Shown here piece after piece: positions 5,213 through 19,558 of a stretch of 20,125 bases of DNA (its first letter is position 1; every line of letters begins with the position of its first letter). Position numbers and translations under genes: made by a program. The notes beneath the pieces were generated by a model, which had not been told where the DNA came from, searched no databases, and saw only the letters and a list, made by a program, of their open reading frames with translations. Source of the stretch: Desulfohalobiaceae bacterium (GTDB lineage Bacteria; Desulfobacterota; Desulfovibrionia; Desulfovibrionales; Desulfothermaceae); assembly GCA_021737615.1 (NCBI GenBank), contig JAIPDR010000053.1, forward strand, positions 1 through 20,125, read 5' to 3'.

Positions 5213-6338
5213 AAAAGCTGCCGGCATCGAAAGAAAAGCCTTTGTCCAGATACAGCCTGAGGCAGGCATCCACTGCTCCTGGATCGTACCTGATGCCCCG
5301 GCCCTGCTCGATCTCCTCCAATGCCTGATCCAAATCCAAGGCCGTACGGTAGGGCCGATGAGAGGTCATGGCCTCGACCACGTCGGCCACGGCCATGATA
5401 CGGGCTTCCAACAAGATATCCTTTTCGGACAGGCCCTGGGGATAACCGGAGCCATCCAGTCGCTCGTGATGCTGGAACACGGTCCGGGCGATGGGCCAGG
5501 GGAAGTCGATGTCCTTCAGGATGTCATAACCCGTCTGGGAATGGTTTTGAATCAGGCTGTATTCCATATCTGACAAGCGGACTGATTTGGATAGGATTTC
5601 CGCAGGCACCGCGATCTTTCCAAGATCGTGGATCATGCCTGCCAGAGAGACTCCCTTTTTCTGTTGTTCAGGAAGGGCCAATTCCCCGGCAATGGCCCGG
5701 GCGAGCCTGGCGACGCGGCTCTGGTGCCCGGATGTATAAGGGTCACGCAATTCGACCATTCTGGCGGTGGCCTTGACTGTTCCCTCCAAGGCCTTCCACA
5801 GTTGGGCATGAGCTTTCTGTAGGTTCTCCTCCGCTTGCTTGCGGCCGGCCAGCTCCACTTCCAGATCCTGCATCTTCTGTTCCAGCTTCTGCACCAAGCG
5901 CTGGCTGTAGAGTTTGTAGGTCTCTTCTTCTGCTCGCTGGGCCGGCTGGCCCGGCTCAAGGCCTCGGGCCTCGGCTTCCTCCATCACCGCCTGGGCTGCC
6001 CCGAGAAAGCCGTTCGGCTGCATGGGCTTGCGCAGGAAGCGGTCCGCACCCAGCTTCAAAGCAAAGGCCTCGTCTTTTTCATCCACATACGTGGCCGTGT
6101 AAAAGATGAAAGGAATGTTTCGCAGGGCCTCGTCGCCCTTGCAGTGCTTGCAGAGCTGAAATCCGTCCATGACCGGCATCAGGATGTCGGCAATGATCAG
6201 GTCAAAGGGCTCGGCCTGGAGTTTGTCCAGGGCTTCCTGGCCGTTTGCAGCCGTGACGGTCTCATACCCCTTGGCCTGGAACATGGTCTGGAGCAGGTAG
6301 AGGTTTTCCGGCTTGTCGTCGACGAGGAGGATTTTCAT
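5211..6338 (-). CDS. Response regulator with HD-GYP domain (RpfG-like c-di-GMP phosphodiesterase)
   Basis: ORF 5211..6377. I place the start at ATG 6338 (MKILLVDDKPENLYLL) because it aligns with the MKALIVDDKLENLYLL start of the paralogous module and GAGG lies 8 nt upstream. The longer ORF starts at a GTG inside a repeat. The HD-GYP motifs HDLGK and HHERLDGSGYPQGL are intact. Confidence 0.9.
   Translation of the reverse strand: MKILLVDDKPENLYLLQTMFQAKGYETVTAANGQEALDKLQAEPFDLIIADILMPVMDGFQLCKHCKGDEALRNIPFIFYTATYVDEKDEAFALKLGADRFLRKPMQPNGFLGAAQAVMEEAEARGLEPGQPAQRAEEETYKLYSQRLVQKLEQKMQDLEVELAGRKQAEENLQKAHAQLWKALEGTVKATARMVELRDPYTSGHQSRVARLARAIAGELALPEQQKKGVSLAGMIHDLGKIAVPAEILSKSVRLSDMEYSLIQNHSQTGYDILKDIDFPWPIARTVFQHHERLDGSGYPQGLSEKDILLEARIMAVADVVEAMTSHRPYRTALDLDQALEEIEQGRGIRYDPGAVDACLRLYLDKGFSFDAGSF
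5825..6338. repeat. Copy 2 of the REC + coiled-coil module duplication
   Basis: See 4500-5013. The protein segments are near-identical from LVDDK through QRLVQKLE.KMQDLE.ELA.RK.AE. Confidence 0.9.
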
Positions 6339-6356
6339 AAGAAGTGCCTCAAGTTG
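6339..6356. repeat. Solo arm of the AAGTGCCTAAAGT family immediately upstream of the HD-GYP start
   Basis: aagaagtgcctcaagttg is the exact reverse complement of 1827-1844. Confidence 0.85.
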
Positions 6357-6368
6357 TTTTACATTGTG

Positions 6369-6695
6369 AATCTCCACATTTTGGATTTTGGATTGCGGAA
6401 TTCAGAGTCATGATTTTGAGACTATTTGCTTTTTCTCGCGGTTTTTATCGAAGATACGATTATTGCGATAATTTCATCGTTTTCTTTCATGAGAGCAGGT
6501 ACCGAGTTCGTTTCAAGAATTTTCATCTCCTCTATGATCTCAAGCCAAAACAATGTTTCATCGGCTTCTTCTTCCACTATGGCCAATTTTGAAATAAAAT
6601 CAGCTACAACACCATCCTCCAATCTTCATTCCCCAATCCCTCAGGGGCTTAGTCCAAAGTCCACTTCCCCAATCCAAAATCCGCAATCCAAAATC
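6369..6695. repeat. Inverted heptamer arrays bracketing the four-helix-bundle gene remnant
   Basis: Arrays are 6369-6399 (aatctccacattttggattttggattgcgga) and 6669-6695 (ccaatccaaaatccgcaatccaaaatc). Positions 6384-6399 are the exact reverse complement of 6680-6695 (16 bp). The right array abuts the receiver stop codon (6694-6696). Confidence 0.9.
6422..6622 (-). pseudogene. C-terminal half of a four-helix-bundle protein (23S rRNA intervening-sequence protein family), N-terminal half missing
   Basis: The 66-aa ORF has a TTG as first codon and no ATG. The sequence ...DFISKLAIVEEEADETLFWLEIIEEMKIL...ENDEIIAIIVSSIKTARKSK matches helices 3-4 of the ~120-aa family (..EA.ET.YWLELL..). Upstream sequence in all frames is heptamer repeat, not helices 1-2. 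Confidence 0.6.
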
Positions 6696-7158
6696 ACAGA
6701 TATCGCCTGACCTCGTCCACAAACGATCCGGTATCAATCGGTTTTTCAATATAGCCGTCACAGCCGGCCGCAAAGGTCTTTTCCCGATCGCCCTTCATGG
6801 CATAGGCGGTCATGGCCACTACAGGCATACGCTTCATTTTGGATTTTGGATCTTGGATTTTGGATTCTTCTTTATTCTGTAATCCGGATTCCAAATTCCG
6901 AATTCGCCTCGTGGCCTCATACCCGTCCAGTTTGGGCAACTGCATATCCATCAGAACCAAATCGGGCTTCTTTTGAATGGCCTTTTGCACGCCCTCCTCT
7001 CCATCCCTGGCCTCCAAGACTTCAAAGCCGGCAATTTCCAGTAGAAATCTGGCCAGATACAAGTTTTTCTCCTCATCCTCAACGATCAAGACCTTCTTAT
7101 TCTGCGGCGAAAAATCAGGATTATAGCCCTTGGTGTTCATCATGCTCCATCCTTTCAT
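6694..7158 (-). CDS. Single-domain CheY-like response regulator with an expanded loop
   Basis: 154-aa ORF with ATG at 7158. Alternative starts at 7143/7140 have a better SD (AAGGATGGAG). REC motifs are VLIVEDEE, DLVLMDMQLP, VVAMTAYAMKGD and YIEKP. The loop between RRIRNLE and PVVAMTA is about twice its usual length (see 6835-6905). Confidence 0.88.
   Translation of the reverse strand: MKGWSMMNTKGYNPDFSPQNKKVLIVEDEEKNLYLARFLLEIAGFEVLEARDGEEGVQKAIQKKPDLVLMDMQLPKLDGYEATRRIRNLESGLQNKEESKIQDPKSKMKRMPVVAMTAYAMKGDREKTFAAGCDGYIEKPIDTGSFVDEVRRYL
6835..6905. repeat. Miniature heptamer element inside the receiver CDS, in frame
   Basis: The minus strand reads cggaatttggaatccggatt-acagaataaagaag-aatccaaaatccaagatccaaaatccaaaatg. 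That is an array, an AGAATAA(A)GA core and an inverse array. It translates as NLESGLQNKEESKIQDPKSKMK. Confidence 0.85.
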
Positions 7159-7222: not shown

Positions 7223-7341
7223 GTAAGTGCCTAAAATTAAGCGTTCTGTGTTTCATCGTTTCCCTATTGTCAATGTCTTCCTCTTCCAATTCTGCCAACT
7301 TTAGACACTTTCGTTCACTTACAAACTTGAGTCACTTCGTC
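7223..7341. repeat. ~119-bp hairpin (MITE-like) element, AAGTGCCTAAAGT family
   Basis: The left arm is gtaagtgcctaaaattaagcg (7223-7243). The right arm is ccaactttagacactttcgttcacttacaaacttgagtcacttcgtc (7295-7341). The right arm contains the last six codons (RSDSSL) and the stop codon (7319-7321) of the upstream kinase. Confidence 0.8.
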
Positions 7342-9454
7342 TCCCTCCTTCTCCCAAAGCCTTTTTGATATCCCGCAACAGATCTTCCCGGCTGGATTGC
7401 TGCTTCTGGATGATATTCTCGATCTTGCTGTTGAGCCAGGCCACTTCTTCCTGGGTCAACTTTTTACCGGAAACAATAATAATCGGGATATGCTTGGTGG
7501 GTTCTTCCTGTTTCAACCTGCCGATGACCTCAAAGCCGTCCACCTCCGGCATCATCAAGTCCAGGATGATCAGATCCGGGGCCTGCTCCGAGACCCTGTC
7601 CAGCCCCTCCTGCCCGCCATAGGCCTTTCTGACCCTGTAGCCGTTGATCTCTTCCAGGTATCTGGACAAGAGCTCCACGGCCCGGGCATCATCGTCCACG
7701 ATCAGGATATCGAAGATAGGCCGCATTTTCTTGAGCCGATCCAGCTCCCGGGTCAACCGGTCCTTGTCGATCGGTTTGACCAGGTATTCCACGGCTCCGA
7801 GGGAGAGGCCCAGCTCCCGGTTGTCCAGGATGGAGATGCAGATAACCGGAATGTTTTCGGTTTCAGGATCGTTTTTGAGTTCTTCCAGGATGTCCCAGCC
7901 ATCCCGGCCGGGCATGACGATATCCAGGGTCACGGCGAAGGGTTTGAATTTCCGGGCCAGCTGCAGGGCCTCCAGACCGTTGTAGGCCTGGATGACTTCA
8001 TAACCTTCGGCCTGGAGGTAGGTTGTAAGGATCTCCTGGGCCTCCAGCTCGTCGTCGATGGTCAGGATCAATTTCCTGGTCTGATCCAGGGTTTCAGGAG
8101 AGACAGCAGGCGGCCTGGCAGCCGGACCGGCCTCCTGGACGGGAATGTTGAAAAAAAAGCAGGAGCCCTGGCCATATTCGCTGTTCACCCCAATGGACCC
8201 GCCCATCATCTCCACCATTTTCTTGCAGATGGCCAGGCCCAGTCCTGTGCCCCCGGGTTTTTCCTTAAGCGGACCGTCGATCTGCTTGAATTCGTCAAAG
8301 ACCTCCTCCAGGTGCTCGGGCCGGATGCCCAGACCGGTGTCGGACACGCTGAAGCGGATCAGGGCCGGGCCGGCCGGTTCCACCCTCAGCTCTATCCGGC
8401 CGGAGCTGGTAAATTTTACGGCGTTGGACAGCATGTTGATCAAGACCTGCTTGATGCGGTTCTTGTCATTGTACAAGCCGGAGGGGACACCATCGGCTAC
8501 ATTCACAAAAAAATTTAAACCCTTATCCTGAACCAGGGGAGAGAACATGCCCTGGACCGTGTCAACAAGGCTTTGGACATCGAATTCAGCAGGCTGGATC
8601 TCGATCTTGCCGGCCTCGATCTTGGACAGGTCCAGGACGTCGTTGATCAGGCCCAAGAGGTGCTGGGCGCTGCCGTAGACCATGTTCAGCTGTTTTTTTT
8701 GTTCCGCATTGAGCTCGCCCGCCAATCCCTCGAGGATGATGCCGCTGAAGCCGATTATGGAGTTCAGGGGCGAGCGCAGTTCGTGGCTCATATTGGCCAT
8801 AAACTGGGACTTGAGCCGGCCGGCCTCTTCCAGGCGCTGGTTGGCCTTTTCCAGCTCCTGTTTCTTTTCCTTGAGTTCCGTGTTGACCCGGGTCAACTCT
8901 TCCTGACCGGCCCGCAGTTCATCCAGGGCCTGCAACAGGTCCTGGTTTTGCTGCTGGACTTCTGCAAACGCGGACCTGGGTCCCCCGGCTGCCAGCCCGG
9001 AGGTGAGGCGCTGGATATCTGCAGGGCCCCAAGGTTCCCGGCCCTCGGGAAGGGCCTTTCCCATGAGCACGCGGGTGCCCTGGCCCGGCCTGGAATCGAT
9101 CTCAAAATGGTCCATGAGCCGCCTGGCCCCGGCAAGGCCGATGCCCAGCCCGCTTTTGGAGGCATAGCCTTGCTTTAAGACGGCCTCCAGATCGGCAATC
9201 CCGGGGCCTTGGTCCTCGAAAGACATGCACAGCATCTGCGGCGAGGCCTCCAGGTCCAACTGGAAATCCAGCTTGCCGTCCCCGGCGTACTGGTAAACAT
9301 TGCGGGCCAGCTCGGACACAGCCGTGGTGATCCGGGTCTGATCCTGGGAGGTAAAGCCGATCAATCCGGCGATCTCCCTGGAGCGCTGCCTGGACAGAAT
9401 CACGTCGTCCTCGAAACGGATCTGAATGCTGAGGATCTTTGTTGGCATCTTCAT
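7319..9454 (-). CDS. Hybrid histidine kinase with N-terminal RsbT-like GHKL domain: RsbT-like - coiled coil - HisKA - HATPase_c - REC - REC
   Basis: ORF 7319..9562. Candidate ATG starts are 9454, 9448, or the repeat-encoded in-frame ATG 9493. The N-terminal domain reads QTRITTAVSELARNVYQYAGDGKL...DQGPGI...SGLGIGLAGARRLMDHFEIDSRPGQGTRV, which resembles RsbT as I recall it from B. subtilis. It is followed by MSHELRSPLNSI (H-box), the HATPase N/G boxes, and two receivers (LDIVMPGRDG and LDLMMPEVDG). Confidence 0.88.
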   Translation of the reverse strand: MKMPTKILSIQIRFEDDVILSRQRSREIAGLIGFTSQDQTRITTAVSELARNVYQYAGDGKLDFQLDLEASPQMLCMSFEDQGPGIADLEAVLKQGYASKSGLGIGLAGARRLMDHFEIDSRPGQGTRVLMGKALPEGREPWGPADIQRLTSGLAAGGPRSAFAEVQQQNQDLLQALDELRAGQEELTRVNTELKEKKQELEKANQRLEEAGRLKSQFMANMSHELRSPLNSIIGFSGIILEGLAGELNAEQKKQLNMVYGSAQHLLGLINDVLDLSKIEAGKIEIQPAEFDVQSLVDTVQGMFSPLVQDKGLNFFVNVADGVPSGLYNDKNRIKQVLINMLSNAVKFTSSGRIELRVEPAGPALIRFSVSDTGLGIRPEHLEEVFDEFKQIDGPLKEKPGGTGLGLAICKKMVEMMGGSIGVNSEYGQGSCFFFNIPVQEAGPAARPPAVSPETLDQTRKLILTIDDELEAQEILTTYLQAEGYEVIQAYNGLEALQLARKFKPFAVTLDIVMPGRDGWDILEELKNDPETENIPVICISILDNRELGLSLGAVEYLVKPIDKDRLTRELDRLKKMRPIFDILIVDDDARAVELLSRYLEEINGYRVRKAYGGQEGLDRVSEQAPDLIILDLMMPEVDGFEVIGRLKQEEPTKHIPIIIVSGKKLTQEEVAWLNSKIENIIQKQQSSREDLLRDIKKALGEGGRRSDSSL
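7361..8850. repeat. Copy 1 of a ~1.5-kb duplicated transmitter module (HisKA-HATPase-REC-REC)
   Basis: Collinear with 15983-17480 at an offset of 8622-8631 nt with a few small indels. Long identical nucleotide runs occur, for example ctcgatcttgccggcctcgatcttggacaggtccaggacgtc. The protein segments are roughly 85% identical by eye. Confidence 0.9.
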
Positions 9455-9691
9455 ATTGCGGATCTTCCGATTTTTGATTTTGGATCTCCACATTTTGGAT
9501 TTTGGATTGCGGAATGCTGATTGCGGATTTTCCGATTTTTCCCGCTTTATGTCGCTTCCCAACTTTAGTCACTTCTTCGCTCTGCAATATTCACTATAGG
9601 CTTTAAGAAAAAGTTTTTGGATTTATGCCAGATAACCAACTCTTATTCTTTGTCTTAACAATCGAAAATCCAAAATCCAAAATCTAAAATT
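9455..9691. repeat. Spacer bracketed by inverted heptamer arrays, with a conserved core
   Basis: Arrays are 9455-9541 and 9659-9691. Positions 9492-9508 (attttggattttggatt) are the exact reverse complement of 9667-9683 (17 bp). Core 9601-9662 is homologous to 5127-5187. The spacer also carries a solo AAGTG-family arm at 9558-9580 (cccaactttagtcacttcttcgc). Confidence 0.9.
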
Positions 9692-9700
9692 CTATAGTCA

Positions 9701-10750
9701 CTATTCAATCACCCGCCCCACCACCACGGTCAGATCATCGTCCCGTTGGTAGTCGCGGTACAGAACGCCGGCGATCAGCGCAGGGTGCCTGGTCACGAGT
9801 CCGGGGTAAGGGTCCAGACTCCAGCCTGTCTTCAAGCCATCGGAATGCATGACCAGCAAGGGAGGGGAGCCGCCTTCTCTCTCCGGCCAGGGAGTGACGT
9901 AGACCCGGCTGAGCTCCTGGCGGCGCCCCACAATTCCATACCGGGAGACCAGGTGCCGGTTCTGGCTTCCGGAGAGGAGGCAGGCGGAGATGTTTCCCAA
10001 CCCGACAAAACGGACTTCCCGCTTCTGCCTGTCCATTTCCGCAACTGCAGCGGCCGCTCCCCGGGTGCCCCGCAGCCCTGCCTGCATACGCTGCATCATG
10101 TCCTGCAGGTCCAGGCCCGGGTTGGCCTGAAAAATTCGTCTGAGCTCCAGAGAGGCCTCGGCCGCTCCAGGACCATGCCCCAGTCCGTCCGCCACCAAAA
10201 CGGCCCAGCCGTTGGGGCGAGGCTGGAGGGCCCAGTTGTCCCCGCAGACGCTCTGGCCCGGCTTGGGCAGGCAGATCCCGGCCACCTCGAACCCGGGGGC
10301 TGAAGGCTTGGCCAGACCGCCTTTCGGCCGGAGGCAGGCCATGAGCACGGTCCCCTGGTCCGGGAGGGAATGGATATCAAACTGGGAACTCAAACGGCGC
10401 ATGGCCCCGAGACCGGTTCCCGGGCTGCCTGTGCTGGAAAAGCCGTCCTGGAGACATTGTCCCACATTCTGCATCCCCGGTCCCTTGTCAATAGCCACGA
10501 TCCGCAGGCCGGACATTTGGCCCAGCTGGACCGTATCCAGGAGCAGCTCCCCGGACCGGGCGTGTTTGAGCAGGTTGGTCCCGGCCTCGGTGACCACGAT
10601 GGCTGTTTTGCCGGTTTGATCCTCACTGAAGCCCAGCTTGCGGGCCAGGTTCACGGCCTTCCGCCGCACTTCGGCGATCCGGCTTTGCTCGGTAACGGAA
10701 AAGGCCAGGCTGCAGCCCGGGCTTTCCTGAGGTATTGAATATGGTCTCAT
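9701..10750 (-). CDS. Fusion of GHKL Ser-kinase-like domain (HATPase_c_2, RsbW/RsbT-like) and PP2C/SpoIIE phosphatase (RsbX/RsbU role)
   Basis: ORF 9701..10804. I place the start at ATG 10750 (MRPYSIPQE), which forms an ATGA overlap with the rsbT stop (10747-10749). Kinase-like motifs are VTEAGTNLLKHA, DKGPGM and GSPGTGLGAMRR. PP2C motifs are VCGDNW, VADGLGHGPGAA, MHSDGL and DDDLTVVV. Confidence 0.85.
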   Translation of the reverse strand: MRPYSIPQESPGCSLAFSVTEQSRIAEVRRKAVNLARKLGFSEDQTGKTAIVVTEAGTNLLKHARSGELLLDTVQLGQMSGLRIVAIDKGPGMQNVGQCLQDGFSSTGSPGTGLGAMRRLSSQFDIHSLPDQGTVLMACLRPKGGLAKPSAPGFEVAGICLPKPGQSVCGDNWALQPRPNGWAVLVADGLGHGPGAAEASLELRRIFQANPGLDLQDMMQRMQAGLRGTRGAAAAVAEMDRQKREVRFVGLGNISACLLSGSQNRHLVSRYGIVGRRQELSRVYVTPWPEREGGSPPLLVMHSDGLKTGWSLDPYPGLVTRHPALIAGVLYRDYQRDDDLTVVVGRVIE

Positions 10751-11157
10751 TTCCACATGATCATGCATACCCGGGTCCCTTGTCCTGCTTGGGATTCTAT
10801 CCAAAATTCATCCACCAGCCTTTTGCTGCCGGGCAGGCCCAGACCCAGGCCCTTGTTCGTGCTGTACCCTTTTTGCATGGCCAGCTGCACATCCTTCAGA
10901 CCCGGCCCTGTATCCGTAAATATCAGGCGCAGACCGAAACGGACTGCATTGTCCACGGCCTCCAGGAGCGCCTTCCCCTCCCGGCCGTATCGAGCCGTAT
11001 TGCGGGCGATCTCACTGGCCGCCGTGACCAGCTTGGTCTGCAGGATCAACGAAAACCCGAACTCCTTTGCCCATTCGCGGACGACCCGCCTGACCCGGGC
11101 CACATCCTGATCAGTGCGGACCGGCAAGGTTTCATGCTTCCGTACGGTCAGGGACAC
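10747..11157 (-). CDS. rsbT: RsbT-like serine kinase / switch protein
   Basis: This lies in ORF 10747..11313. The likely start is GTG 11157 (GGAGAAGG just upstream), overlapping the rsbS 3' end by 26 nt. The ~136-aa sequence includes ...AASEIARNTARYG...DTGPGL...KGLGLGLPGSKRLVDEFWIESQAGQGTRV, a single GHKL domain of RsbT size. The start codon is uncertain. Confidence 0.8.
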   Translation of the reverse strand: MSLTVRKHETLPVRTDQDVARVRRVVREWAKEFGFSLILQTKLVTAASEIARNTARYGREGKALLEAVDNAVRFGLRLIFTDTGPGLKDVQLAMQKGYSTNKGLGLGLPGSKRLVDEFWIESQAGQGTRVCMIMWK

Positions 11158-11533
11158 GGCCCTTCTCCCGGGAAGACGATCCCAGCCTCTTGGCAAGCAG
11201 GGCCATGCCTTTGTCCACATCCAGGGCGGTCCGGATGCCTTTGATGGCCAGGCCCAGCTCGACAATGGTGATGGCCACCTCCGGCTGCATACCCACCAGG
11301 ACCGTTTCCGCATCCAGAAGGCCGGCCGTGGCCGCCATGTCTCCCAGGGTGCGGCCCATGAAGGAATCGATCATCTGCAGGGCTGAGATGTCGATCAATA
11401 CCCCCCTGGCCCCGGTTTTTTGAATCTGCTCGGCCAGGTCATCCCGCAGGGCCAGGGCCAAGCGGTCGTGCAAGTCCACTTGAATGATCACCAAAAGAAA
11501 ATTCCCCCACTTGAGGATCGGAATCCGTTCCAT
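11132..11533 (-). CDS. rsbS: RsbS-like single-STAS stressosome scaffold protein
   Basis: This lies in ORF 11132..11626. The start is ATG 11533 (MERIPILKWGNFLLVIIQ), since upstream codons are heptamer repeat. It is a STAS fold with DISALQMIDSFMGRTL, where the Ser sits at the expected phospho-acceptor position. Confidence 0.85.
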   Translation of the reverse strand: MERIPILKWGNFLLVIIQVDLHDRLALALRDDLAEQIQKTGARGVLIDISALQMIDSFMGRTLGDMAATAGLLDAETVLVGMQPEVAITIVELGLAIKGIRTALDVDKGMALLAKRLGSSSREKGRVPDRTEA

Positions 11534-11579
11534 GCTAGCGCCTTTCAGAAGAGGTTTTGATTGACTATTGATTATTTCA

Positions 11580-11650
11580 GCAATCGACAATCCAACATGT
11601 GAAGATCCAAAATCTCCAATCCGCAATCCAAAATCCGCAATCCAAAATCC
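11580..11650. repeat. Unpaired 71-bp heptamer array filling most of the rsbR-rsbS spacer
   Basis: gcaatcgacaatccaacatgtgaagatccaaaatctccaatccgcaatccaaaatccgcaatccaaaatcc starts directly after the rsbR stop codon (11651-11653). I found no complementary array before the rsbS start. Confidence 0.9.
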
Positions 11651-12520
11651 CTAGAATCTGCCCGGCTCCCCCTTGACCACATAACCGCTGCGTTCCAAGG
11701 CCAGGGCAAGCGCATCCGCCAGGGTGGCCTTGGTGGGAATTCCCCCCAGCTCCAGGCCCATGTCCACCATGGACTGGGCGATCATCGGCCGGATCCCGCT
11801 GATGATGCACTCGGCGCCCATGAGACCGGCCGCGGATACGGTCTTGATCAGATGCTGGGCCACCAGGGTGTCCACGGTGGGCACGCCGGTGATATCCATA
11901 ATGGCGATGGTGGATTTGGTTTCCACAATCATCTGCAAAAGGTTTTCCATGACCGTCTGGGTGCGGGCGCTGTCCAGGGTCCCGATCAGGGGGACCGCCA
12001 GGACCCCGTGCCAGAGCTGGACCACAGGCGTGGACAGCTCCATGATCTCCTCCTGCTGGCGCCGGATGACCTGTTCCCGGTGCTGAATAGAAGCTTCGGT
12101 GGTATACAGGCCCAGCTTGTCCAGCAGCCGGGTCGCGGTCCAGATTTCCTGCACCAGTTCCTCTGGATTCTCGGCCAGAAGGCTCTGGAGGAGGTACATC
12201 AGGGGCTGTTTAAAGGAAAAGATACAGGTGGCCACCTCCGAGGGGGTAAAGCCTTTTTCCCCCCGGGTGCGGGAGATCCTGGACAGCATGTCCCTGACTT
12301 CTTTCCAGGCTTCAGCGCTTGTATCAACGACTCCGCCCGCCTGCAGGGCCGAGCGGAAAAGACTGATAAATTCAGCAGCTTCTTCCCGCAGTGCGGTTTC
12401 ATCAATCAAATCCGGCCGCAAGACGCCGGAACTCAATTGTTCCCGGATCCAGTCCTTCAACAGCTCCTGTTCATACTTTTCAAGTATCTCCGGCAGGCGC
12501 GTTGTCTCTTGATCATTCAT
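11651..12520 (-). CDS. rsbR: RsbR-like stressosome sensor (N-terminal helical sensory domain + C-terminal STAS)
   Basis: 289-aa ORF. ATG 12520 has AGGAGG 7 nt upstream. The C-terminal STAS reads STPVVQLWHGVLAVPLIGTLDSARTQ...IMDITGVPTVDTLVAQHL, with Thr at the RsbR phospho-site position. The N-terminal ~150 aa resemble RsbR-type sensory domains (ILEKYEQELLKDWIREQL). Confidence 0.88.
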   Translation of the reverse strand: MNDQETTRLPEILEKYEQELLKDWIREQLSSGVLRPDLIDETALREEAAEFISLFRSALQAGGVVDTSAEAWKEVRDMLSRISRTRGEKGFTPSEVATCIFSFKQPLMYLLQSLLAENPEELVQEIWTATRLLDKLGLYTTEASIQHREQVIRRQQEEIMELSTPVVQLWHGVLAVPLIGTLDSARTQTVMENLLQMIVETKSTIAIMDITGVPTVDTLVAQHLIKTVSAAGLMGAECIISGIRPMIAQSMVDMGLELGGIPTKATLADALALALERSGYVVKGEPGRF

Positions 12521-12845: not shown

Positions 12846-12880
12846 CCTATAGTTCACTTATCGACTTGAGGCGCTTCTTC
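12846..12880. repeat. Arm of the AAGTGCCTAAAGT family overlapping the 3' end of the SBP/4-Cys sensor gene
   Basis: Positions 12854-12880 (tcacttatcgacttgaggcgcttcttc) differ at only 3 of 27 positions from 1819-1845. The arm encodes EEAPQVDK plus the stop codon. Confidence 0.85.
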
Positions 12881-14020
12881 AAATTCAGAGTAGAGCAGGG
12901 CCTCGCAATCCGGGCAGATGCCGTGGGAAAATGTAGCTTCTGAGTGTTTCTTGATGAAGAATTCGATCTGGTTCCAGTAGCCCTGGTCGTCCCGGATCTT
13001 TTTGCAGTTGGCGCAGATTGGGATGAGCCCTTTCAAGGTCTTGACTTGGACCAGGGCTTCCTGGAGCCGGTTCCGCTCATTGAGAAGCGCAGTCTCAGCC
13101 GCAGTTTTCCGGGCGATTTCCTCCTCCAGGGTCGTATTACGTTCCTTCAATTCTCTGGTTTTGGATCTGACCTGCTGTTTCAAGACCAGGCTGAAGAGAG
13201 CAAACAGACAGCCCAGGCCGACTGCCGCGGCCAATCCGAAAAGCAAAGCCCTGGGCACCTCCCGTTCCACCCGCATGTCGAACCAGTGCTCCAGGGTCTG
13301 GTTGTAGAAGGAATTCCGGTCCTGCTTCAGGACGGAAAGCTGTTGATCAATAGCGGCCGCCAGGTCCTGGTTATGCCCTTTGGGAAAGGCGAATCTGAGT
13401 TCCACCGGGGCCAGGACGATGGGCGTCCGCCTGACCTCGTATTTGTCCTCCTCGGCCAGGCCGTAGAGCCTGCTGATGATCCCGGCCTCCGCCGCTCCCC
13501 GGTCCAGGGCTTGAAAGACTTCTTTGTAACCGCTGCAGAGCACATACTCGCAGGCAATGTTGAACTGCTTGAAGCGTTCAAAGGAGATACCCCCTTGCAT
13601 GACCGCGACTCTTTTGCCCTGAAGCTGCTCGACGTTTTCAATGTCCAATCCTGCGCGGCTGTAAATCCTAGCCCAGTTGGAGAGCACGGTCTCCCGGTTG
13701 AAGTCATACATTTCGGCCCGGTCCCGGCTATAGGCCACATCCACCATGATATCCAGCTTGCCGGCCCGCAGCCGGTCCAGGCACTGCTGCCAGGTCCCGG
13801 GCACATAGTCCAGGTCCCAGCCTTCCTGCCTCGCGATATCCCCCAGAAGATCCACCCAGATTCCGGCGGGCCTGCCGGCCTCATCCAGGTAGACCTTGGG
13901 CTTGTTCTGATAGATGCCCACCCGGACCGTCTCGGCAGCAGACCCTGAAGCCGGGAGCCAGAACAGGAGCAACAGGGCGATGAGCAGCCGTATGAAATTT
14001 TGGATTTTGGATCTCCACAT
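12854..14020 (-). CDS. Membrane sensor: signal peptide - periplasmic SBP_bac_3 (Venus-flytrap) domain - TM - coiled coil - short 4-Cys C-terminal domain
   Basis: ORF 12854..14101 has a TTG as first codon. The likely start is ATG 14020 (MWRSKIQNFIRLLIALLLLFWLPASGSAA, signal-peptide-like). The SBP domain begins VRVGIYQNKPKVYLDEAG...DIMVDVAYSRDRAEMYDF. The TM segment is ALLFGLAAAVGLGCLFALFSLVL. The C-terminus is ICANCKKIRDDQGYWNQIEFFIKKHSEATFSHGICPDCEALLY. Confidence 0.85.
   Translation of the reverse strand: MWRSKIQNFIRLLIALLLLFWLPASGSAAETVRVGIYQNKPKVYLDEAGRPAGIWVDLLGDIARQEGWDLDYVPGTWQQCLDRLRAGKLDIMVDVAYSRDRAEMYDFNRETVLSNWARIYSRAGLDIENVEQLQGKRVAVMQGGISFERFKQFNIACEYVLCSGYKEVFQALDRGAAEAGIISRLYGLAEEDKYEVRRTPIVLAPVELRFAFPKGHNQDLAAAIDQQLSVLKQDRNSFYNQTLEHWFDMRVEREVPRALLFGLAAAVGLGCLFALFSLVLKQQVRSKTRELKERNTTLEEEIARKTAAETALLNERNRLQEALVQVKTLKGLIPICANCKKIRDDQGYWNQIEFFIKKHSEATFSHGICPDCEALLYSEFEEAPQVDK
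13090..13965. repeat. Copy 1 of a ~0.88-kb duplicated sensor module (SBP domain + TM + start of coiled coil)
   Basis: Collinear with 17542-18417 at an offset of 4452 nt. Identical runs of 40-60 nt occur, for example gccaggccgtagagcctgctgatgatcccggcctccgccgctcccc. The protein segments are roughly 85-90% identical by eye. Confidence 0.9.
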
Positions 14021-14247
14021 TTTGGATTTTGGATCTCCACATTTTGGATTTTGGATTAGGAAGACACAGAATAAGAACTGGTCTATATGGAATAAATCCA
14101 ATACCTTTTTCCTAAAGCATCTATCCCTCAGGGCCGGCCTCCAGCTCCGCTACGGGCCGGAGAGTAAAGTATACGCCCTGGAGAAAAGCCAAAATCGACC
14201 CTCTTTCTTTTTCCGCAATCCAAAATCCGCATTCCAAAATCCAAAAT
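13996..14247. repeat. Spacer bracketed by inverted heptamer arrays, with the conserved core in opposite orientation
   Basis: The left array (13996-14057) contains the 22-bp unit attttggattttggatctccac in 2.8 tandem copies (13997-14018, 14019-14040, 14041-14057). The right array is 14212-14247. Positions 14041-14055 are the exact reverse complement of 14233-14247 (15 bp). Core 14058-14118 is homologous to the reverse complement of 9601-9662. Confidence 0.9.
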
Positions 14248-14250
14248 TCT

Positions 14251-15783
14251 TCAAACGCTTTCCCACTCAAACCCCACGATATTCCGTTTCTCACTGGAAA
14301 ACTCCACCCCGATCAAATAGACCTCCTGCCCGGCGAATTTTTCCGCGTACCCCCTGGCCTTGATCTGTTCCAGGGCCCCGGCTTGATCCGTGAGCTCCAC
14401 CACCTTGAACTCGATCAGATAGATCCGGTCCTCAAAACGCAGGGTCAGGTCCATCCTGCCCTTGTTCGTCGGCTCTTCAGGATGGACGTCCAGCCCAAGG
14501 GCTGCAAAATAACAGTAGACAATGGAGGCGTAGTAGCCTTCATACCCGGCCAATTGGTTCTTGCGATACCAGTCATGGGGGATGGAGGCGAAAAAGGCCT
14601 GAAACAGCTCACGGAGCTTATCCAGGTCATTGACTGAGAGGGCATCCAGCAGATCGGACTGATTTCTGGTCTTGGCCAGGCGGGCCTGGGATAGTCCGTT
14701 CAAAATGGAGTTGGTCAGACTGGCCTTGACCTCCATGTTGGGGTAACCAAGGCGATACCGGCTAAAGGCCCCGGTCTGGGAAAAGCCCCTGATAGTCAAG
14801 TAGCCGGTCTGGAAAAGAAGGGCCTCCGCAACAATTGAATCGATATCAAAACTGCCCACGATTTCCTCTCCCACGGTCAGGTCTTCCACTTCCGGGATGC
14901 TGTACCGGCCCTCCTGCAGCAGTTTGACCAGAAAACCCGGGGTTCCGGTTTCAAACCAATAATTCCGAAATTCCTTAGAATCCAAATACAGCAGAATATC
15001 AAAAGGGTTATAGACCTCGTCTCCCAGCCAGTTGTACCCATTGTACCACTGTTGGACCTGATCCTTATCCACCCCGTCCAAACGATCCACAAAGACCGTC
15101 TCCAATTCCTGCTGGGTATATCCACAAATCGCTGAAAAGCGCTTATCCAGGGTGATGTCCTTGAGGTTGTTCAAACCGCTGAACAAGGAAACCTTGCTGA
15201 ATTTGGAGACCCCGGTGATGAATACGAATTCTAGATAGGGATCGGCATCCTTGATCACTGAGTAGTAGTTCTTGAGCTCCTCTCTGATTTCCACAGCTGT
15301 TGCCGGTTTTTCAATATTGTCCAGGATGGGCTTGTCATATTCGTCCACCAGGACCACCACTTTTTGGCCGAATTGCCTGCACAAGGTGTGGATCAGTTCG
15401 GCGAAGCGGCTTCTCAAATCATCATAGCTGAAAGAAATTTTGTATTCTTTCGCATGCTCGGATAATATATAGGTAAAAGATTGCTGAAGCTCCTCAATAG
15501 TTCTCAGCACTCCGGAGCCAAAGCTGATATGGACCACCGGATTCGTCCGGTCCCAATCCCAGTGATCAAAAAGATACTGTCCTTGAAACAAGTCCTTTTT
15601 GCCTTGATAGGCGGCCTTGATGGTGCTCAGGAACAAACTCTTGCCGAAGCGCCTAGGCCGGGAGAGGAAGTAATAATCCCCGGCCTGGGCCAGCTCGCTG
15701 ATAAACCGTGTTTTATCGACATAGTAACAGTTGCTTTCAATCAGCTTTTCAAAGGTCTGAATGCCGATGGGCAGCTTTTTCAT
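14251..15783 (-). CDS. AAA-ATPase-like protein with C-terminal PD-(D/E)XK nuclease domain (AAA-ATPase_like + PDDEXK_9 architecture)
   Basis: 510-aa ORF. ATG 15783 has AGGAG 9 nt upstream. The N-terminus MKKLPIGIQTFEKLIESNCYYVDKTRFI...FLSRPRRFGKSL is the family hallmark. The C-terminus GRMDLTLRFEDRIYLIEFKV carries the D...ExK nuclease motif. Confidence 0.88.
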   Translation of the reverse strand: MKKLPIGIQTFEKLIESNCYYVDKTRFISELAQAGDYYFLSRPRRFGKSLFLSTIKAAYQGKKDLFQGQYLFDHWDWDRTNPVVHISFGSGVLRTIEELQQSFTYILSEHAKEYKISFSYDDLRSRFAELIHTLCRQFGQKVVVLVDEYDKPILDNIEKPATAVEIREELKNYYSVIKDADPYLEFVFITGVSKFSKVSLFSGLNNLKDITLDKRFSAICGYTQQELETVFVDRLDGVDKDQVQQWYNGYNWLGDEVYNPFDILLYLDSKEFRNYWFETGTPGFLVKLLQEGRYSIPEVEDLTVGEEIVGSFDIDSIVAEALLFQTGYLTIRGFSQTGAFSRYRLGYPNMEVKASLTNSILNGLSQARLAKTRNQSDLLDALSVNDLDKLRELFQAFFASIPHDWYRKNQLAGYEGYYASIVYCYFAALGLDVHPEEPTNKGRMDLTLRFEDRIYLIEFKVVELTDQAGALEQIKARGYAEKFAGQEVYLIGVEFSSEKRNIVGFEWESV

Positions 15784-15797
15784 AAGGACAGGCTCCT

Positions 15798-15844
15798 GAT
15801 TTTGGATTGCGGATTTTGGATTGCGGATTGCAGATTTTGGATTT
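15798..15844. repeat. Heptamer array just upstream of the AAA-ATPase-like gene's RBS
   Basis: gattttg gattgcg gattttg gattgcg gattgca gattttg gattt is about 6.7 units. It lies 14 nt from the ATG at 15783. Confidence 0.9.
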
Positions 15845-15847
15845 GAC

Positions 15848-15967
15848 GGAAGTGCCTAAAGTCGGGGAACACCTAAAGTATTCGGAATTATAAGAGCGGT
15901 CGCTGCAGTCTCCGTTCCGTCAACTTTAGTCGCTTTAGTTCACTTCTCAACTTTAGCTCACTTCTTC
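15848..15967. repeat. ~120-bp hairpin (MITE-like) element, AAGTGCCTAAAGT family
   Basis: The left arm is ggaagtgcctaaagtcggggaacacctaaagtattcgg (15848-15885). The right arm is ccgtcaactttagtcgctttagttcacttctcaactttagctcacttcttc (15917-15967). The terminal ~15 nt are imperfect inverted repeats. The right arm encodes EEVS plus the stop codon (15953-15955) of the upstream kinase. Confidence 0.85.
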
Positions 15968-18460
15968 TCCACCTCCCAAAGCCTTTTTGATATCCCGCAG
16001 CAAATTCTCCTTGTTGAATTGTTCTTTCTGGATGATATATTCGATCCTGCTGTTGAGCCACTCTATTTCTTCCTGGGTCATTTTTTTTCCGGAGACGATA
16101 ATAATCGGGATATGCTTGCCGGGCTCTTCTTTCTTCAGCCGGCCGATGACCTCAAAGCCGTCCACCTCCGGCATCGCCAGATCCAGGATGATCAGGTCCG
16201 GGGCCTGTTCCGAGACCCTGTCCAGCCCCTCCTGCCCGCCATAGGCCTTTCTGATCCTGTAGCCGTTGAGTTCTTCAAGGGACCTGGACAAAAGCTCCAC
16301 GGCCAGGGGATCATCGTCCACGATCAGGATATCGAAGATGGACCGTATTTTCTTCAGCCGCTCCAGCTCCCGGGTCAGCCGGTCCTTGTCGATCGGCTTG
16401 ACCAGATAGTCCACTGCCCCCAGGGAGAGGCCCAGTTCGCGGTTATCCAGCATGGAGATGCAGATAACCGGGATATCCTCGGTCTGGGGATCATTTTTAA
16501 GTTCTTCCAGGATATCCCAGCCGTCCCGGCCGGGCATGACGATATCCAGGGTCACGGCAAAGGGCTTGAATTTCCGGGCCAGCTGCACGGCCTCCAGGCC
16601 GTTGCAAGCCTGGACGACTTCATAGCCCTCGGCCTGGAGATAGGCTTTGAGGATCTCCTGAGCCTCCTTATCGTCATCGATGGTCAGGATCAACTTTTTG
16701 TCCGGATCCAGATCTTCAGAAGAAATCGCGGGGCTTTTTTCGAAAGTAGCCGGTGCTTGAACCGGAATGGTGAACCAGAAGCAGGAACCCTGGCCGTATT
16801 CGCTGTCCACTCCGATGCATCCGCCCATCATCTCCACCATTTTCTTGCAGATGGCCAGGCCCAGCCCGGTGCCTCCGGGCTTTTCCTTGAGGGGGCCGTC
16901 GATCTGCTGGAACTCATCAAAGACCTCTTCCAGGTGTTCGGTGCGGATACCCAGACCGGTGTCGGAGACACTGAAACGGATCATTTCCCCACCGGCCTCC
17001 CCCTTGAGCAGGTCGGTTTTGAGGCAGACCCTGCCTGATTCCGTGAATTTTACGGCGTTGGAGAGCAGGTTGATCAGAATCTGCTTGATGCGATTCTTGT
17101 CGTTGTACAAGGTGGATGGGATATCCGAGACGTCGAGACCAAAATTCAGGCCTTTTTTCTGAACCAGGGGGGCCACCATGTCTTGCACCGATTTCAGTAG
17201 CTCCCTGAGCTCGAATTCAGCAGGCTGGATCTCGATCTTGCCGGCCTCGATCTTGGACAGGTCCAGGACGTCATTGATCAGCCCCAACAGGTGCTGGGCG
17301 CTGTCATAGACCATGCCCAGCTGCTTGCGCTGCTCTTGGTTGAGCTCCCCTGCCAGCCCCTCCAGGAGGATTCCGCTGAAGCCGATGATGGAGTTCAGGG
17401 GAGAACGCAGCTCGTGGCTCATGTTGGCCAGAAACTGGGACTTGAGCCGGCCGGCCTCTTCCAGACGCTGGTTGGCTTCAGACAATTCCCGGGTCCGGCC
17501 TTCGACCTTTTGTTCCAAGGTCTCGGCATAGTCCTGCAAACGAGTTTCCGCCTGCCGGCGTTTCAAGATTTCGGCTTCCAGGGCCTGGTTGCGCTCCGAG
17601 AGTTCCCGGGTTTTGGCCCGGACCTGCCGTCTGAGGACCAGGGCGAATATAAAAAACAGGCCCCCCAGGCCCACGGCCGCGGCCAGTCCAAAGAGCAAAA
17701 CCCCGGGCACTTCCCGCTCCACCCGCCTGTCGAACCACTGCTCCAGGGTCTGGTGGTAGAAAGAATCCCGGTTCTGCTTCAAGGCGGACAGGCGCCGGTC
17801 AATGGCGGCAATCAGGTCCCGGCCTTGATCCTTGGGAAAAGCGAACCTGAGCTCCACCGGAGCCAGGACGATGGGTGTCCGCCTGACCTCGTATCTGTCT
17901 TCCTCGGCCAGGCCGTAGAGCCTGCTGATGATCCCGGCCTCCGCCGCTCCCCGATCCAGAACTTGAAAGACCTCTTTGTAGCCGCTGCAGAGCACATACT
18001 CGCAGGCAATGTTGAACTGCTTGAAGCGCTCGAAGGAGATCCCCCCTTGCATAACCGCGACCCTTTTTCCCTGGAGCTGCTCGACGTTTTCAATGTCCAA
18101 TCCCGAGCGGCTGTAGACCCGGGCCCAATTTGAGAGCACGGTCTCTCTGTTGAAGTCAAAAAGTTCGGCCCGGTCCCGGCTGTAGGCCACGTCCACCATG
18201 ATATCAAGCTCGCCCGCCTGCAGCCGGTCCAGGCACTGCTGCCAGGTCCCGGTCACATACTCCAGATCCCAGCCTTCCTGCCTCGCGATATACCCCAGAA
18301 GATCCACCCAGAGCCCAGCCGGATTCCCGGCCTCATCCAGGTAGACCTTGGGCTTGTTCTGATAAATGCCCACCCGGAGCGTCTCGGCCGCTGTCCCTGT
18401 AACCGGGAGCCAGGACAGGATTAGCAAAGTTAGCACAGGGGTCAGGCAGCGGAGTGTCAT
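15953..18460 (-). CDS. Hybrid histidine kinase: signal peptide - periplasmic SBP_bac_3 domain - TM - coiled coil - HisKA - HATPase_c - REC - REC
   Basis: ORF 15953..18475 has a GTG as first codon. The likely start is ATG 18460 (MTLRCLTPVLTLLILSWLPVTGTAA). The N-terminal ~320 aa are paralogous to the 12854-14020 product and the C-terminal ~510 aa to the 7319-9454 product. The H-box is MSHELRSPLNSI. Confidence 0.9.
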   Translation of the reverse strand: MTLRCLTPVLTLLILSWLPVTGTAAETLRVGIYQNKPKVYLDEAGNPAGLWVDLLGYIARQEGWDLEYVTGTWQQCLDRLQAGELDIMVDVAYSRDRAELFDFNRETVLSNWARVYSRSGLDIENVEQLQGKRVAVMQGGISFERFKQFNIACEYVLCSGYKEVFQVLDRGAAEAGIISRLYGLAEEDRYEVRRTPIVLAPVELRFAFPKDQGRDLIAAIDRRLSALKQNRDSFYHQTLEQWFDRRVEREVPGVLLFGLAAAVGLGGLFFIFALVLRRQVRAKTRELSERNQALEAEILKRRQAETRLQDYAETLEQKVEGRTRELSEANQRLEEAGRLKSQFLANMSHELRSPLNSIIGFSGILLEGLAGELNQEQRKQLGMVYDSAQHLLGLINDVLDLSKIEAGKIEIQPAEFELRELLKSVQDMVAPLVQKKGLNFGLDVSDIPSTLYNDKNRIKQILINLLSNAVKFTESGRVCLKTDLLKGEAGGEMIRFSVSDTGLGIRTEHLEEVFDEFQQIDGPLKEKPGGTGLGLAICKKMVEMMGGCIGVDSEYGQGSCFWFTIPVQAPATFEKSPAISSEDLDPDKKLILTIDDDKEAQEILKAYLQAEGYEVVQACNGLEAVQLARKFKPFAVTLDIVMPGRDGWDILEELKNDPQTEDIPVICISMLDNRELGLSLGAVDYLVKPIDKDRLTRELERLKKIRSIFDILIVDDDPLAVELLSRSLEELNGYRIRKAYGGQEGLDRVSEQAPDLIILDLAMPEVDGFEVIGRLKKEEPGKHIPIIIVSGKKMTQEEIEWLNSRIEYIIQKEQFNKENLLRDIKKALGGGEEVS
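15983..17480. repeat. Copy 2 of the duplicated transmitter module
   Basis: See 7361-8850. Confidence 0.9.
17542..18417. repeat. Copy 2 of the duplicated SBP sensor module
   Basis: See 13090-13965. Confidence 0.9.
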
Positions 18461-18475
18461 GTACAAGCTCTTCAC

Positions 18476-18521
18476 ATTGCGGATTTTGGATCTTCCGATT
18501 TTGAATCTCCCGATTTTGGAG
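18476..18521. repeat. Heptamer array filling the 50-nt spacer between the DUF5615 remnant and the SBP kinase
   Basis: attgcggattttggatcttccgattttgaatctcccgattttggag mixes GGATTTT and CGATTTT units. Confidence 0.85.
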
Positions 18522-18525
18522 ATCT

Positions 18526-18857
18526 TTAGAGAGGCAAGAATTGAACATGAGTTAGCAGATCTTCAGGTTCGCCGGCAGTTGAAATGAGCTCCAGATCTCT
18601 TATACAAGTGCCGATCGTCGTCCCCATCGGATGGCAATAGATTACCCCCGCAAAAGGCGTTTCCTCCTTTTGTCGTTTTGCCGCCTCAGCGAGAAAATCG
18701 TCATCATGCGTGAAAAGCACCCGGCCCAGTTGTGTGGATCGGTCTAACAATTCTGAATCGTCCATCTCGTCGGAACCATCTTCATGTGGGCTGTCAGAAC
18801 ATCTACACCATGTAAACGCAGACCCAAGGTTATGGATCGGGGGACATTATGGTCCAT
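18526..18857 (-). pseudogene. DUF5615 (PIN-like, Mut7-C-type) toxin gene disrupted by a frameshift near 18784
   Basis: ATG 18857 opens MDHNVPRSITLGLRLHGVDVLTAH. That frame then runs into MKMVPTRWTIQNC and a stop. The family sequence continues in another frame as EDGSDEMDDSELLDRSTQLGRVLFTHDDDFL... (ORF 18526..18765). Two extra nt (at, 18785-18784), or equivalently one missing nt, separate the two frames. The gene lies 17 nt downstream of the DUF433 gene. Confidence 0.7.
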
Positions 18858-18874
18858 ATAAAGTGGAATCACAA

Positions 18875-19201
18875 TCAGATCAGTCCCTTGGATTTGAGCC
18901 TGGCCGCGAGAGGGGTTTGGCCCTCGGTTTTTCGAGCCTGCCTCACAAAAGCAAGCCTTTTTTCAATGTCCCTATCAATCGCTTCCTGGTGATCCCAATA
19001 GTAAGCCAAAGCAGAGTATATCTGGCCAAGTGTCAGGTGAGGATGCTGAAAATACAGTTCTTCGGGGCTCCACCCGTAGGCGATCTTTTCCACAACGATC
19101 TCGATCACCTTCATGTTTGTTCCTGCTATGACCGGTACGCCTTTGGCATCCAGCGCCACGTGCTCATACCGTGTTTTCTCAACAGTCAATGACATGATCA
19201 T
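18875..19201 (-). CDS. DUF433-domain antitoxin-like protein
   Basis: ORF 18875..19204 has a GTG first codon followed by ATGs at 19201 and 19195. AGGA lies upstream. The sequence ...VPVIAGTNMKVIEIVVEKIAYGWSPEELYFQHPHLTLGQIYSALAYYWDHQEAID is a typical DUF433 core. Confidence 0.8.
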   Translation of the reverse strand: MIMSLTVEKTRYEHVALDAKGVPVIAGTNMKVIEIVVEKIAYGWSPEELYFQHPHLTLGQIYSALAYYWDHQEAIDRDIEKRLAFVRQARKTEGQTPLAARLKSKGLI

Positions 19202-19412
19202 CACCTTTTCCTTTCATCTCCTGTTTCATGGGTACCTCTTATCTTCTATACCAGAAGTTGGCATAAATTGCGCTTCTTATCTGCCGTCGATGACAGCTCT
19301 CCTGGGTCATGTGAGACAGGAGATGTATTTTGGGCCAACTTCTGGTATCTATTTGATAAATTGAAATATAAAAAAACTCAAAAGTCAAGAAACCACCCCC
19401 GTCCCTCCTCCT

Positions 19413-19558
19413 CTCCAATCCAAAATCCGCAATCCCTCCGGGGCATAGGCCCCTACGGGCCGGAGGCCAAAATCCAATATTCAATTCCTCCTCCCCATTC
19501 CCCATTCCCCATACCCCATTCCGCATTCCAAAATCCAAAATGTGAAGATCCAAAATCA
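19413..19558. repeat. Composite heptamer arrays with variant units downstream of the GGDEF gene
   Basis: 19413-19439 reads ctccaatccaaaatccgcaatccctcc. 19494-19558 reads cccattccccattccccataccccattccgcattccaaaatccaaaatgtgaagatccaaaatcac, about 9 units grading from CCCCATT to CCAAAAT. The second array overlaps the GGDEF stop codon (19556-19558). Confidence 0.9.

Follow-up and report, generated by a model that had tools for sequence, protein, structure and literature searches.

The 20,125-nucleotide stretch of DNA considered here (the window, meaning the whole of that stretch) comes from a Desulfohalobiaceae bacterium and contains a gene for a membrane-bound sensor, P0001, which ends in a small four-cysteine module (the Cys4 tail). 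The window is a 20,126-bp contig minus one base and belongs to a metagenome-assembled genome (MAG) of 3.84 Mb with 55% G+C. P0001 consists of a signal peptide or first transmembrane segment (TM1), a periplasmic domain of the solute-binding protein (SBP) type, a second transmembrane segment (TM2), a coiled-coil or helical stretch and a C-terminal C-x2-C-x29-C-x2-C module. A prediction made earlier from the sequence alone (the original prediction) described an SBP membrane sensor ending in a four-Cys mini-domain, and this description holds: the open reading frame (ORF) is intact, an SBP_bac_3 domain is recognised, hydropathy analysis gives two hydrophobic segments (residues ~6–30 and ~255–284) and the tail sequence is as quoted. 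The N-terminus has a basic n-region followed by a Leu-rich core. The SBP_bac_3 assignment (PF00497) is made at 61.3 bits, with a cut-off of 26.4, and it is the sole match in a Pfam scan of the protein. The nearest relatives of the binding domain in the PDB are 3H7M, a ‘sensor protein’, and glutamine- or amino-acid-binding domains. P0001 is not a sensor histidine kinase, as neither HisKA nor HATPase_c was found in it with Pfam or NCBIfam; both are present in the neighbouring paralogue P0002. The chain ends 16 residues beyond the last Cys. The coordinates of these and other features are collected in the table.

Table. Features of the window with their positions, strand and the basis of each assignment
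Feature	Positions	Strand	Basis
P0001 gene (SBP sensor with Cys4 tail, 388 aa)	12854..14020	−	intact ORF, ATG at 14020
P0001 N-terminal signal peptide or TM1 (aa 1–29)	13934..14020	−	Kyte–Doolittle windows >1.6 at aa 6–30
P0001 periplasmic SBP_bac_3 domain (aa 32–248)	13277..13927	−	Pfam E = 1e-16
P0001 TM2 (aa 255–282)	13175..13258	−	hydropathy windows up to 2.4
P0001 signalling helix of the cassette, 35 residues (aa 301–335), begins at ‘EIARK’	13016..13120	−	homology break, DIT spacing, heptads
P0001 Cys4 module (aa 334–380; Cys336/339/369/372, Trp349, His366)	12881..13021	−	invariant residues, 77 tails
Perfect 22-nt tandem repeat, 2.7 copies, spanning the P0001 start codon	13997..14056	.	Tandem Repeats Finder, 100% matches, score 120
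P0002, hybrid kinase, 840 aa (SBP_bac_3, HisKA, HATPase_c, REC, REC)	15953..18475	−	Pfam
Kinase, 747 aa, with transmitter paralogous to that of P0002 (HATPase_c_2, HisKA, HATPase_c, REC, REC)	7319..9562	−	repeats, BLASTP
AAA-ATPase_like + PDDEXK_9 gene, between the two sensor paralogues	14251..15783	−	Pfam
Stressosome-like genes directly downstream of P0001 (RsbRD_N+STAS, STAS, HATPase_c_2, HATPase_c_2+SpoIIE)	9701..12520	−	Pfam

The hybrid kinase P0002 is encoded two genes away from P0001, at a distance of 2 kb, and shares its sensor half. Residues 13–312 of P0001 align with residues 14–313 of P0002 without gaps at 82% identity (BLASTP); for the SBP domain alone, the value is 88%, for amino acids and nucleotides alike. 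The predicted paralogy is therefore real, as is the coupling of one sensor half both to a full phosphorelay and to the tail, while the predicted identity of 85–90% for the sensor half was set slightly too high. The nucleotide identity of the pair is 0.75–0.93 up to residue ~292 and 0.44 beyond, and the final block of DNA common to both genes stops near position 13115, which corresponds to residue ~302. In the binding domain, synonymous divergence (dS) is 0.37 and the ratio of non-synonymous to synonymous divergence (dN/dS) is 0.18; for the pair overall, dN/dS is about 0.2. The low ratio in the binding domain implies that both copies have been retained by selection since the duplication. P0001 is a non-decaying gene under purifying selection.

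The kinase half of P0002 also has a paralogue in the window. Residues 330–836 are 76% identical (BLASTP; dS ~0.66, dN/dS 0.23) to the transmitter of the 747-residue kinase, and four direct repeats between the two genes (D2, D4, D5 and D6) have a nucleotide identity of 82–88%. The two HisKA–HATPase_c–REC–REC segments, at 15956–17605 and 7322–8965 on the minus strand, are recent paralogues. Nearly the whole of P0002 is covered by two segments, each with a paralogue elsewhere on the same contig, and P0002 is thus a mosaic. It may be P0002, rather than P0001, that is the derived chimera: one fusion event making P0002 accounts for both of its similarities, whereas the alternative requires two events. 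Among 40 relatives searched, there is no full-length orthologue of P0001 or of the 747-residue kinase. The statement of the original prediction that the transmitter had been replaced by the tail presumed a direction of exchange and cannot be used as history. A third pair of modules, at 4504–4803 and 5829–6128 (90% nucleotide identity, dS 0.24), likewise combines the same REC domain with different partners, one member being the N-terminal REC of a 1064-residue PAS kinase (1819–5013) and the other the REC of a REC-HD-GYP protein (5211–6377).

The tail family is defined here by the C-x2-C-x29-C-x2-C motif, in which positions +13 and +30 counted from the first Cys are Trp and His, and by the location of this motif at the C-terminal end of a module; P0001 possesses all six residues. 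The motif is present in 365/365 distinct retrieved proteins. In a tally of 292 motifs, the spacing is 29 residues in 291, and none of the four Cys varies in alignments of 112, 75 and 77 sequences. Conservation of the Cys residues, which the original prediction had proposed as a check, is thereby borne out. In 77 tails gathered from 16 genomes by score, not by pattern, the four Cys, the Trp and the His are all invariant, and positions K4, I6, R7, D9, G11, Y19 and F28 are nearly so. A Lys-Lys-x-Arg sequence is conserved after the first CxxC. Spirochaete copies are variable at R7, D8, E17 and H23, and several of them have Glu, Asp or Gln for the Pro of CPxC. The core of the tail is acidic to neutral, with a median net charge of −1 and a mean of −1.4 (n = 405).

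Tails from the same genome are barely more similar than those from different genomes of one phylum (identity 0.696 vs 0.672 and 0.553 vs 0.537), which indicates that their conservation results from selection and not from recent spread. Judged by these comparisons, the tail copies are old paralogues under strong purifying selection rather than a recently spread cassette. A genome-specific signature, which might have hinted at a co-evolving partner, is barely over background (the 0.696 vs 0.672 given above); the phylum-level signature is clear, with LYG vs LYP after the last Cys.

This conservation bears on the suggestion, also contained in the original prediction, that P0001 is a decoy or dominant-negative protein. 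Having no output of its own, it would compete with P0002 for the ligand or form inactive heterodimers with it, and the tail would be a stable cap. Such a role would fit the 82% identity of the sensor halves, the closeness of the two genes and the presence of only two tail genes in this genome. The tail, however, is conserved on tens of thousands of proteins, most of them without a kinase paralogue nearby, and a mere cap would not retain an invariant Trp and His together with near-invariant Lys, Arg and Asp. In addition, TM2 and the juxtamembrane helix (residues 253–292) are far more diverged, at 75% nucleotide identity and dN 0.20, than the binding domain with its 88% identity and dN of 0.011 in the core (residues 133–212); this is the pattern expected of insulated paralogues. 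The decoy role is thus possible but not favoured, and we consider it quite unlikely.

Searches for relatives of the tail gave no usable match in Pfam at E ≤ 10 or in NCBIfam. The lone Pfam match within that threshold is DUF3039, which covers a 12-residue stretch at E = 0.01 and is under its own cut-off. A PDB search with the tail sequence and with the 77-sequence profile returned nothing under E = 0.17. The AlphaFold2 model of the tail (predicted local distance difference test score, pLDDT, 77.7) has a strand–helix–helix–strand–helix order, with each CxxC at a strand-to-helix junction, and a Foldseek search of the PDB with this model returned nothing under E = 0.5. Searching the literature by motif, Cys spacing and domain names brought up no account of the module. 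The original prediction could not name a family accession for the tail and, by sequence, profile and fold, with the PDB included, no well-characterised family was found. Its reading of the tail as a zinc ribbon fared differently. None of the zinc-ribbon or zinc-finger profiles of Pfam (zinc_ribbon_*, DZR, Zn-ribbon_8, DksA/TraR C4 and others) matches at E ≤ 10, and a classical zinc-ribbon fold, which has two β-hairpin zinc knuckles, is not supported by the predicted model. The four Cys most likely bind metal, as their pattern suggests, in the form of one structural ion, probably Zn.

The Cys spacing of the tail is shared by 20 rubredoxins that this genome and its relatives encode. Membership of the rubredoxin family was nevertheless rejected: the PF00301 hidden Markov model, run on 21 genomes, picks true rubredoxins only, and hhalign gives a probability of 7.7% over 7 columns.

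A very small enzyme or second-messenger site has also been considered, in which the dimeric module would use the invariant His and the conserved Arg, Asp-Asp and Glu at the dimer interface. R7, D8/D9, E17, H23 and H30 are conserved unusually well for a structural zinc finger, and the high share of membrane-bound carriers recalls kinases and cyclases. Four of these residues (R7, D8, E17 and H23) are, however, among those that vary in spirochaete copies, the module is very small, and no likeness to a catalytic fold or a known nucleotide-binding motif was detected, which makes a catalytic role very improbable.

The tail has a wide distribution. A phmmer search with residues 330–388 of P0001 against 1.84 billion cluster representatives found 20,698 clusters (50% identity) at E ≤ 1e-3 and 13,213 at E ≤ 1e-10. 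Scanning one genome per species confirmed at least 582 tail loci, and the range covers at least 15 phyla, far beyond the sulfate reducers and spirochaetes named in the original prediction. The best 80 of the at least 582 loci have 57–76% identity to the tail of P0001, across phyla: Thermodesulfobacteriota, Chloroflexota, Acidobacteriota, Gemmatimonadota, Verrucomicrobiota, Bacteroidota and relatives, Nitrospirota, Nitrospinota, Spirochaetota, Latescibacterota, Elusimicrobiota, Sumerlaeota, Poribacteria and Actinomycetes. Many of the carrier lineages are anaerobes. A tblastn search with the tail gave 0 matches in 72,556 plasmids and 50,697 phage records.

In the phylum of the source organism, the tail was found in 141/301 sampled genomes, with 1–17 copies each; in the Spirochaetota sample, it was found in 21/101 genomes, one of which has 29 copies. 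By analogy, such copy numbers are as for general-purpose output domains. The 29-copy spirochaete genome (G351, that of locus L020; 6.3 Mb, loci L124–L152) has a lineage-specific variant of the module: several copies have CEEC or CEDC for CPxC and most end in LYG, not LYP. The genome of P0001 has two tail copies. The second belongs to a 302-residue multi-transmembrane protein without a Pfam domain (L002:802-1710, contig C244), in the tail of which the near-invariant His at +23 is replaced by Arg and ‘SHG’ by ‘SHS’.

The domains that accompany the tail were surveyed in 120 proteins with precomputed Pfam annotation and in 75 proteins cut from genome contigs, the tally for the latter listing the 25 commonest of 49 families. 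The partners are input domains: PAS, REC, GAF, Cache, HAMP, Y_Y_Y/Reg_prop, MASE3, HisKA_7TM, VUPS, Tll0287, TPR and SBP. None of HisKA, HATPase_c, GGDEF, EAL and HTH is among the partner families listed. The statement in the original prediction that the tail recurs at the C-terminus of PAS- and REC-type signalling proteins is confirmed by this survey. A large share of the carriers are integral membrane sensors. The tail ends no more than 48 residues from the C-terminus, and the internal copies are the ends of modules duplicated in tandem. Among seven metagenomic proteins with two tails (P0003, P0122, P0124, P0125, P0126, P0130 and P0147), the sensor–helix–tail module is doubled within one ORF, as membrane-tail ×2, REC-tail ×2 or propeller-tail ×2, and one of the seven has a REC-tail-tail order.

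A histidine kinase gene often precedes the REC-tail genes. From the input-only partners, the C-terminal position and the location of REC-tail genes beside kinase genes, the tail is best read as an output; to judge by these architectures, it would be the sole candidate output of its carriers. This agrees with the original prediction, which had placed it where an output domain would be, since it follows input domains only among the families listed.

Within three genes of the tail, clustering of the neighbours at 72 loci gave one recurrent cluster, found at 17 loci and composed of generic kinase, REC and PAS proteins. The tail has no conserved gene neighbour in the 72 loci. Stand-alone helix-plus-tail genes (83–119 residues) also exist, and the contexts of three of them on long contigs have nothing in common. 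At two of the 72 loci, a gene for a CBS-DUF294 nucleotidyltransferase lies directly upstream of the tail gene (L037:5287-7302 and L050:3478-7101, in the unrelated genomes of a Nitrospira and a Sumerlaeota MAG), which could be chance.

The position of REC-tail genes next to kinase genes is also that of classical response-regulator transcription factors. The tail could accordingly be a small zinc-finger binder of DNA or RNA, its carriers one-component or response regulators, and P0001 a membrane-tethered member of this group. DNA or RNA binding has been proposed for archaeal Cys-rich output domains (PMC5847659), and the conserved Lys-Lys-x-Arg would be in line with it. Yet the slightly acidic core counts against a nucleic-acid-binding finger, no solved nucleic-acid-binding fold matches, and membrane integration, seen in a large share of the carriers, is not usual among DNA-binding outputs. 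Binding of nucleic acids is therefore considered highly unlikely.

The stretch between the input domain and the tail has a fixed geometry. In PAS-tail proteins, the distance from the PAS ‘DIT’ motif to the first Cys is 35 residues in 67/84 cases and 21, 28 or 42 residues in five more, so that it is a multiple of seven in 72/84. Measured from the phospho-Asp of REC, the spacing to the first Cys has its maxima at 93, 100, 107 and 114 residues (14/30). Hydrophobic residues are conserved at −21/−20, −17, −14/−13, −10, −7 and −4/−3 before the first Cys, which is an a/d/e heptad pattern. P0001 has the same heptad-phased helix, which is the second defining trait of the family (35 residues, or 35 ± 7n, from the junction motif to the first Cys): its ‘EIARK’ at residue 301 is exactly 35 residues ahead of Cys336, and the homology with P0002 stops there too. 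As these two points coincide, the exchanged unit can be described as a cassette of about 85 residues that comprises the junction motif, five heptads and the Cys4 module. The search for a donor of this cassette points to none in particular: the best matches, at 68–73% identity, are Tll0287-HAMP-tail proteins from within the genus and family, and other tails come to 60–67%.

Linkers with an axxdexx pattern and with lengths that differ by multiples of seven are known from Rec-GGDEF proteins, in which a switch of register upon activation has been reported (PMC8041772). The tail linkers are stepped in sevens and have the axxdexx pattern as well. In P0001, Pfam finds no GGDEF catalytic domain.

The heptad-phased linker is relevant to a further possibility, namely that the tail is an input. 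The Cys4 centre, with or without the His, would sense cytoplasmic redox state, oxygen, Zn or Fe through its metal or thiols and modulate the oligomeric state of the protein, the output being left to other domains. The arguments for this are the rubredoxin-like Cys spacing, the invariant His three residues ahead of the third Cys, the anaerobic life of many carrier lineages and the presence of rubredoxins in 15/15 good-quality genomes among the 21 searched (relatives and this genome). PAS-, GAF- and Cache-tail proteins would then consist of inputs only, without any output; besides, a fixed heptad-phased linker is the mark of an effector when it lies downstream of input domains, and homology to rubredoxin was rejected, as described above. 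An input role for the tail thus appears unlikely.

The preferred reading treats the tail as an effector. P0001 would be a functional dimeric membrane receptor with a periplasmic family-3 domain of the amino-acid type that senses a ligand. The signal would cross TM2 into a parallel coiled coil, the last five heptads of which would form the portable cassette together with a ‘DIT/EIxRK’-type junction motif and the 45-residue module with its four Cys, single Trp and single His. One structural metal ion, probably Zn, would be held by the four Cys, and in one of the states a composite surface would be presented to a conserved cytoplasmic target that is not encoded nearby. P0001 and P0002 would feed one periplasmic signal, or two closely related signals, into two pathways, the phosphorelay and the tail pathway. 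That P0001 is such a dimeric receptor, in which the signalling helix positions two metal-holding heads acting on a conserved target encoded elsewhere, is given about an even chance of being right.

Several points weigh against this reading. The Cys pattern is the only ground for metal binding; neither a solved structure nor a paper on the module was found in the PDB and literature searches; the confidence of the AlphaFold2 model is moderate. For an output domain, the 45-residue module is small. That the target is unlinked is argued in part from absence, since no partner was found. Lastly, the pattern-based locus search inflates some of the conservation figures, and the 77 tails collected by score are only a partial correction.

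A more far-reaching proposition is that the helix-plus-Cys4 cassette represents a major class of bacterial signalling output that has so far gone undescribed. In this view, the output would be a dimeric, metal-holding head; the register of the signalling helix would fix its geometry, and the invariant His might form a second site that spans the two chains. The head would act on some conserved component of the cell by a route that involves neither phosphotransfer nor cyclic nucleotides nor DNA binding, with P0001 and P0002 as a natural split between a phosphorelay and a new pathway. This proposition is put forward tentatively, as plausible yet still rather more open to doubt than to acceptance.

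The surroundings of P0001 in the window include several features that concern it less directly. The AAA-ATPase_like + PDDEXK_9 gene has two more partial copies in the genome, with 70–73% identity and located at contig ends; it may be mobile or selfish. The stressosome-like genes belong to a cluster at 7319–12520 that takes in an RsbT-like HATPase_c_2 gene and the hybrid kinase with an N-terminal HATPase_c_2 domain; beyond this cluster lie genes for a REC protein, a REC-HD-GYP protein and a REC-PAS×4 kinase. P0001 does not appear to be a conserved part of an RsbRST-like cluster, as no STAS/RsbT-like cluster recurs beside the tail genes at the 72 loci. Upstream of P0002, at 18526–19204, there is a pair of small DUF433 and DUF5615 genes, toxin–antitoxin-type in appearance.

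Short repeats are frequent in the window. The 22-nt repeat over the start of P0001 puts an identical ATG 22 nt upstream of the start codon in another frame, giving a 53-residue ORF (13881–14042) that overlaps the beginning of the gene, and a similar array of 15-nt units is found at 18482–18520, just upstream of the P0002 start. Arrays of 7-nt units (ATTTTGG/AATCCAA and variants) occupy most spacers between the minus-strand genes, for example at 5030–5065, 6836–6866, 9660–9690, 11605–11650, 14212–14247, 15798–15844 and 19492–19557. Promoter and terminator scans around P0001 gave nothing beyond chance.

Censuses of signal transduction sort proteins by their output domain, and they lack this module, which occurs in more than 20,000 clusters, spans at least 15 phyla and reaches up to 29 copies in a genome. 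The annotation of its carriers goes no further than ‘PAS domain protein’, ‘response regulator’ or ‘hypothetical’. The target of the tail, once found, would give a function to many sensors of sulfate reducers, spirochaetes, Chloroflexota, Acidobacteriota, Nitrospirota and others, and might expose a signalling mechanism not yet described. The locus itself shows the exchange of a cassette at one defined junction, which lies exactly 35 residues ahead of the first Cys and can guide the cutting of chimeras. One type of sensor is wired here both to a kinase, the output of which can be assayed, and to the tail, so that a ligand found by means of the kinase could afterwards serve to drive the tail. New to this analysis are the exact position of the cassette junction, the mosaic make-up of P0002, the selection figures, the residues found invariant in tails gathered by score and the rubredoxin test.

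Four known systems can be compared with P0001 and its tail. Rubredoxin (PF00301) has the same C-x2-C-x29-C-x2-C spacing and a CPxC second knuckle; the model of the tail, however, has helices in places that are loops and a small sheet in rubredoxin, and the Gly that follows each knuckle in rubredoxin is missing from the tail. HalOD2 and TackOD1, Cys-rich outputs of archaeal response regulators (PMC5847659), are also small modules with CxxC pairs and are defined by their output position after REC. HalOD2 differs in having 20–25 residues between its CxxC pairs and in being limited to a few halobacteria, TackOD1 in having 11 Cys, and both in having no invariant Trp/His pattern; they are set apart from the tail by their published descriptions, not by sequence. 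The family-3 SBP sensor kinases (PDB 3H7M; P0002) share with P0001 the order of signal peptide or TM1, SBP_bac_3, TM2 and signalling helix, but P0001 is without HisKA, HATPase_c and REC, and its helix runs into the Cys4 module. The coiled-coil GGDEF cyclases with Rec, PAS or phytochrome inputs (DgcR, WspR and PadC; PMC8041772) differ in their effector, as that of P0001 is a 45-residue four-Cys module without the GGDEF fold or known catalysis. In both cases, an input is joined to a C-terminal effector by a parallel coiled coil and, as in the Rec-GGDEF type, the linker is varied in steps of seven, the axxdexx pattern is found in its last heptads and the effector would be dimeric.

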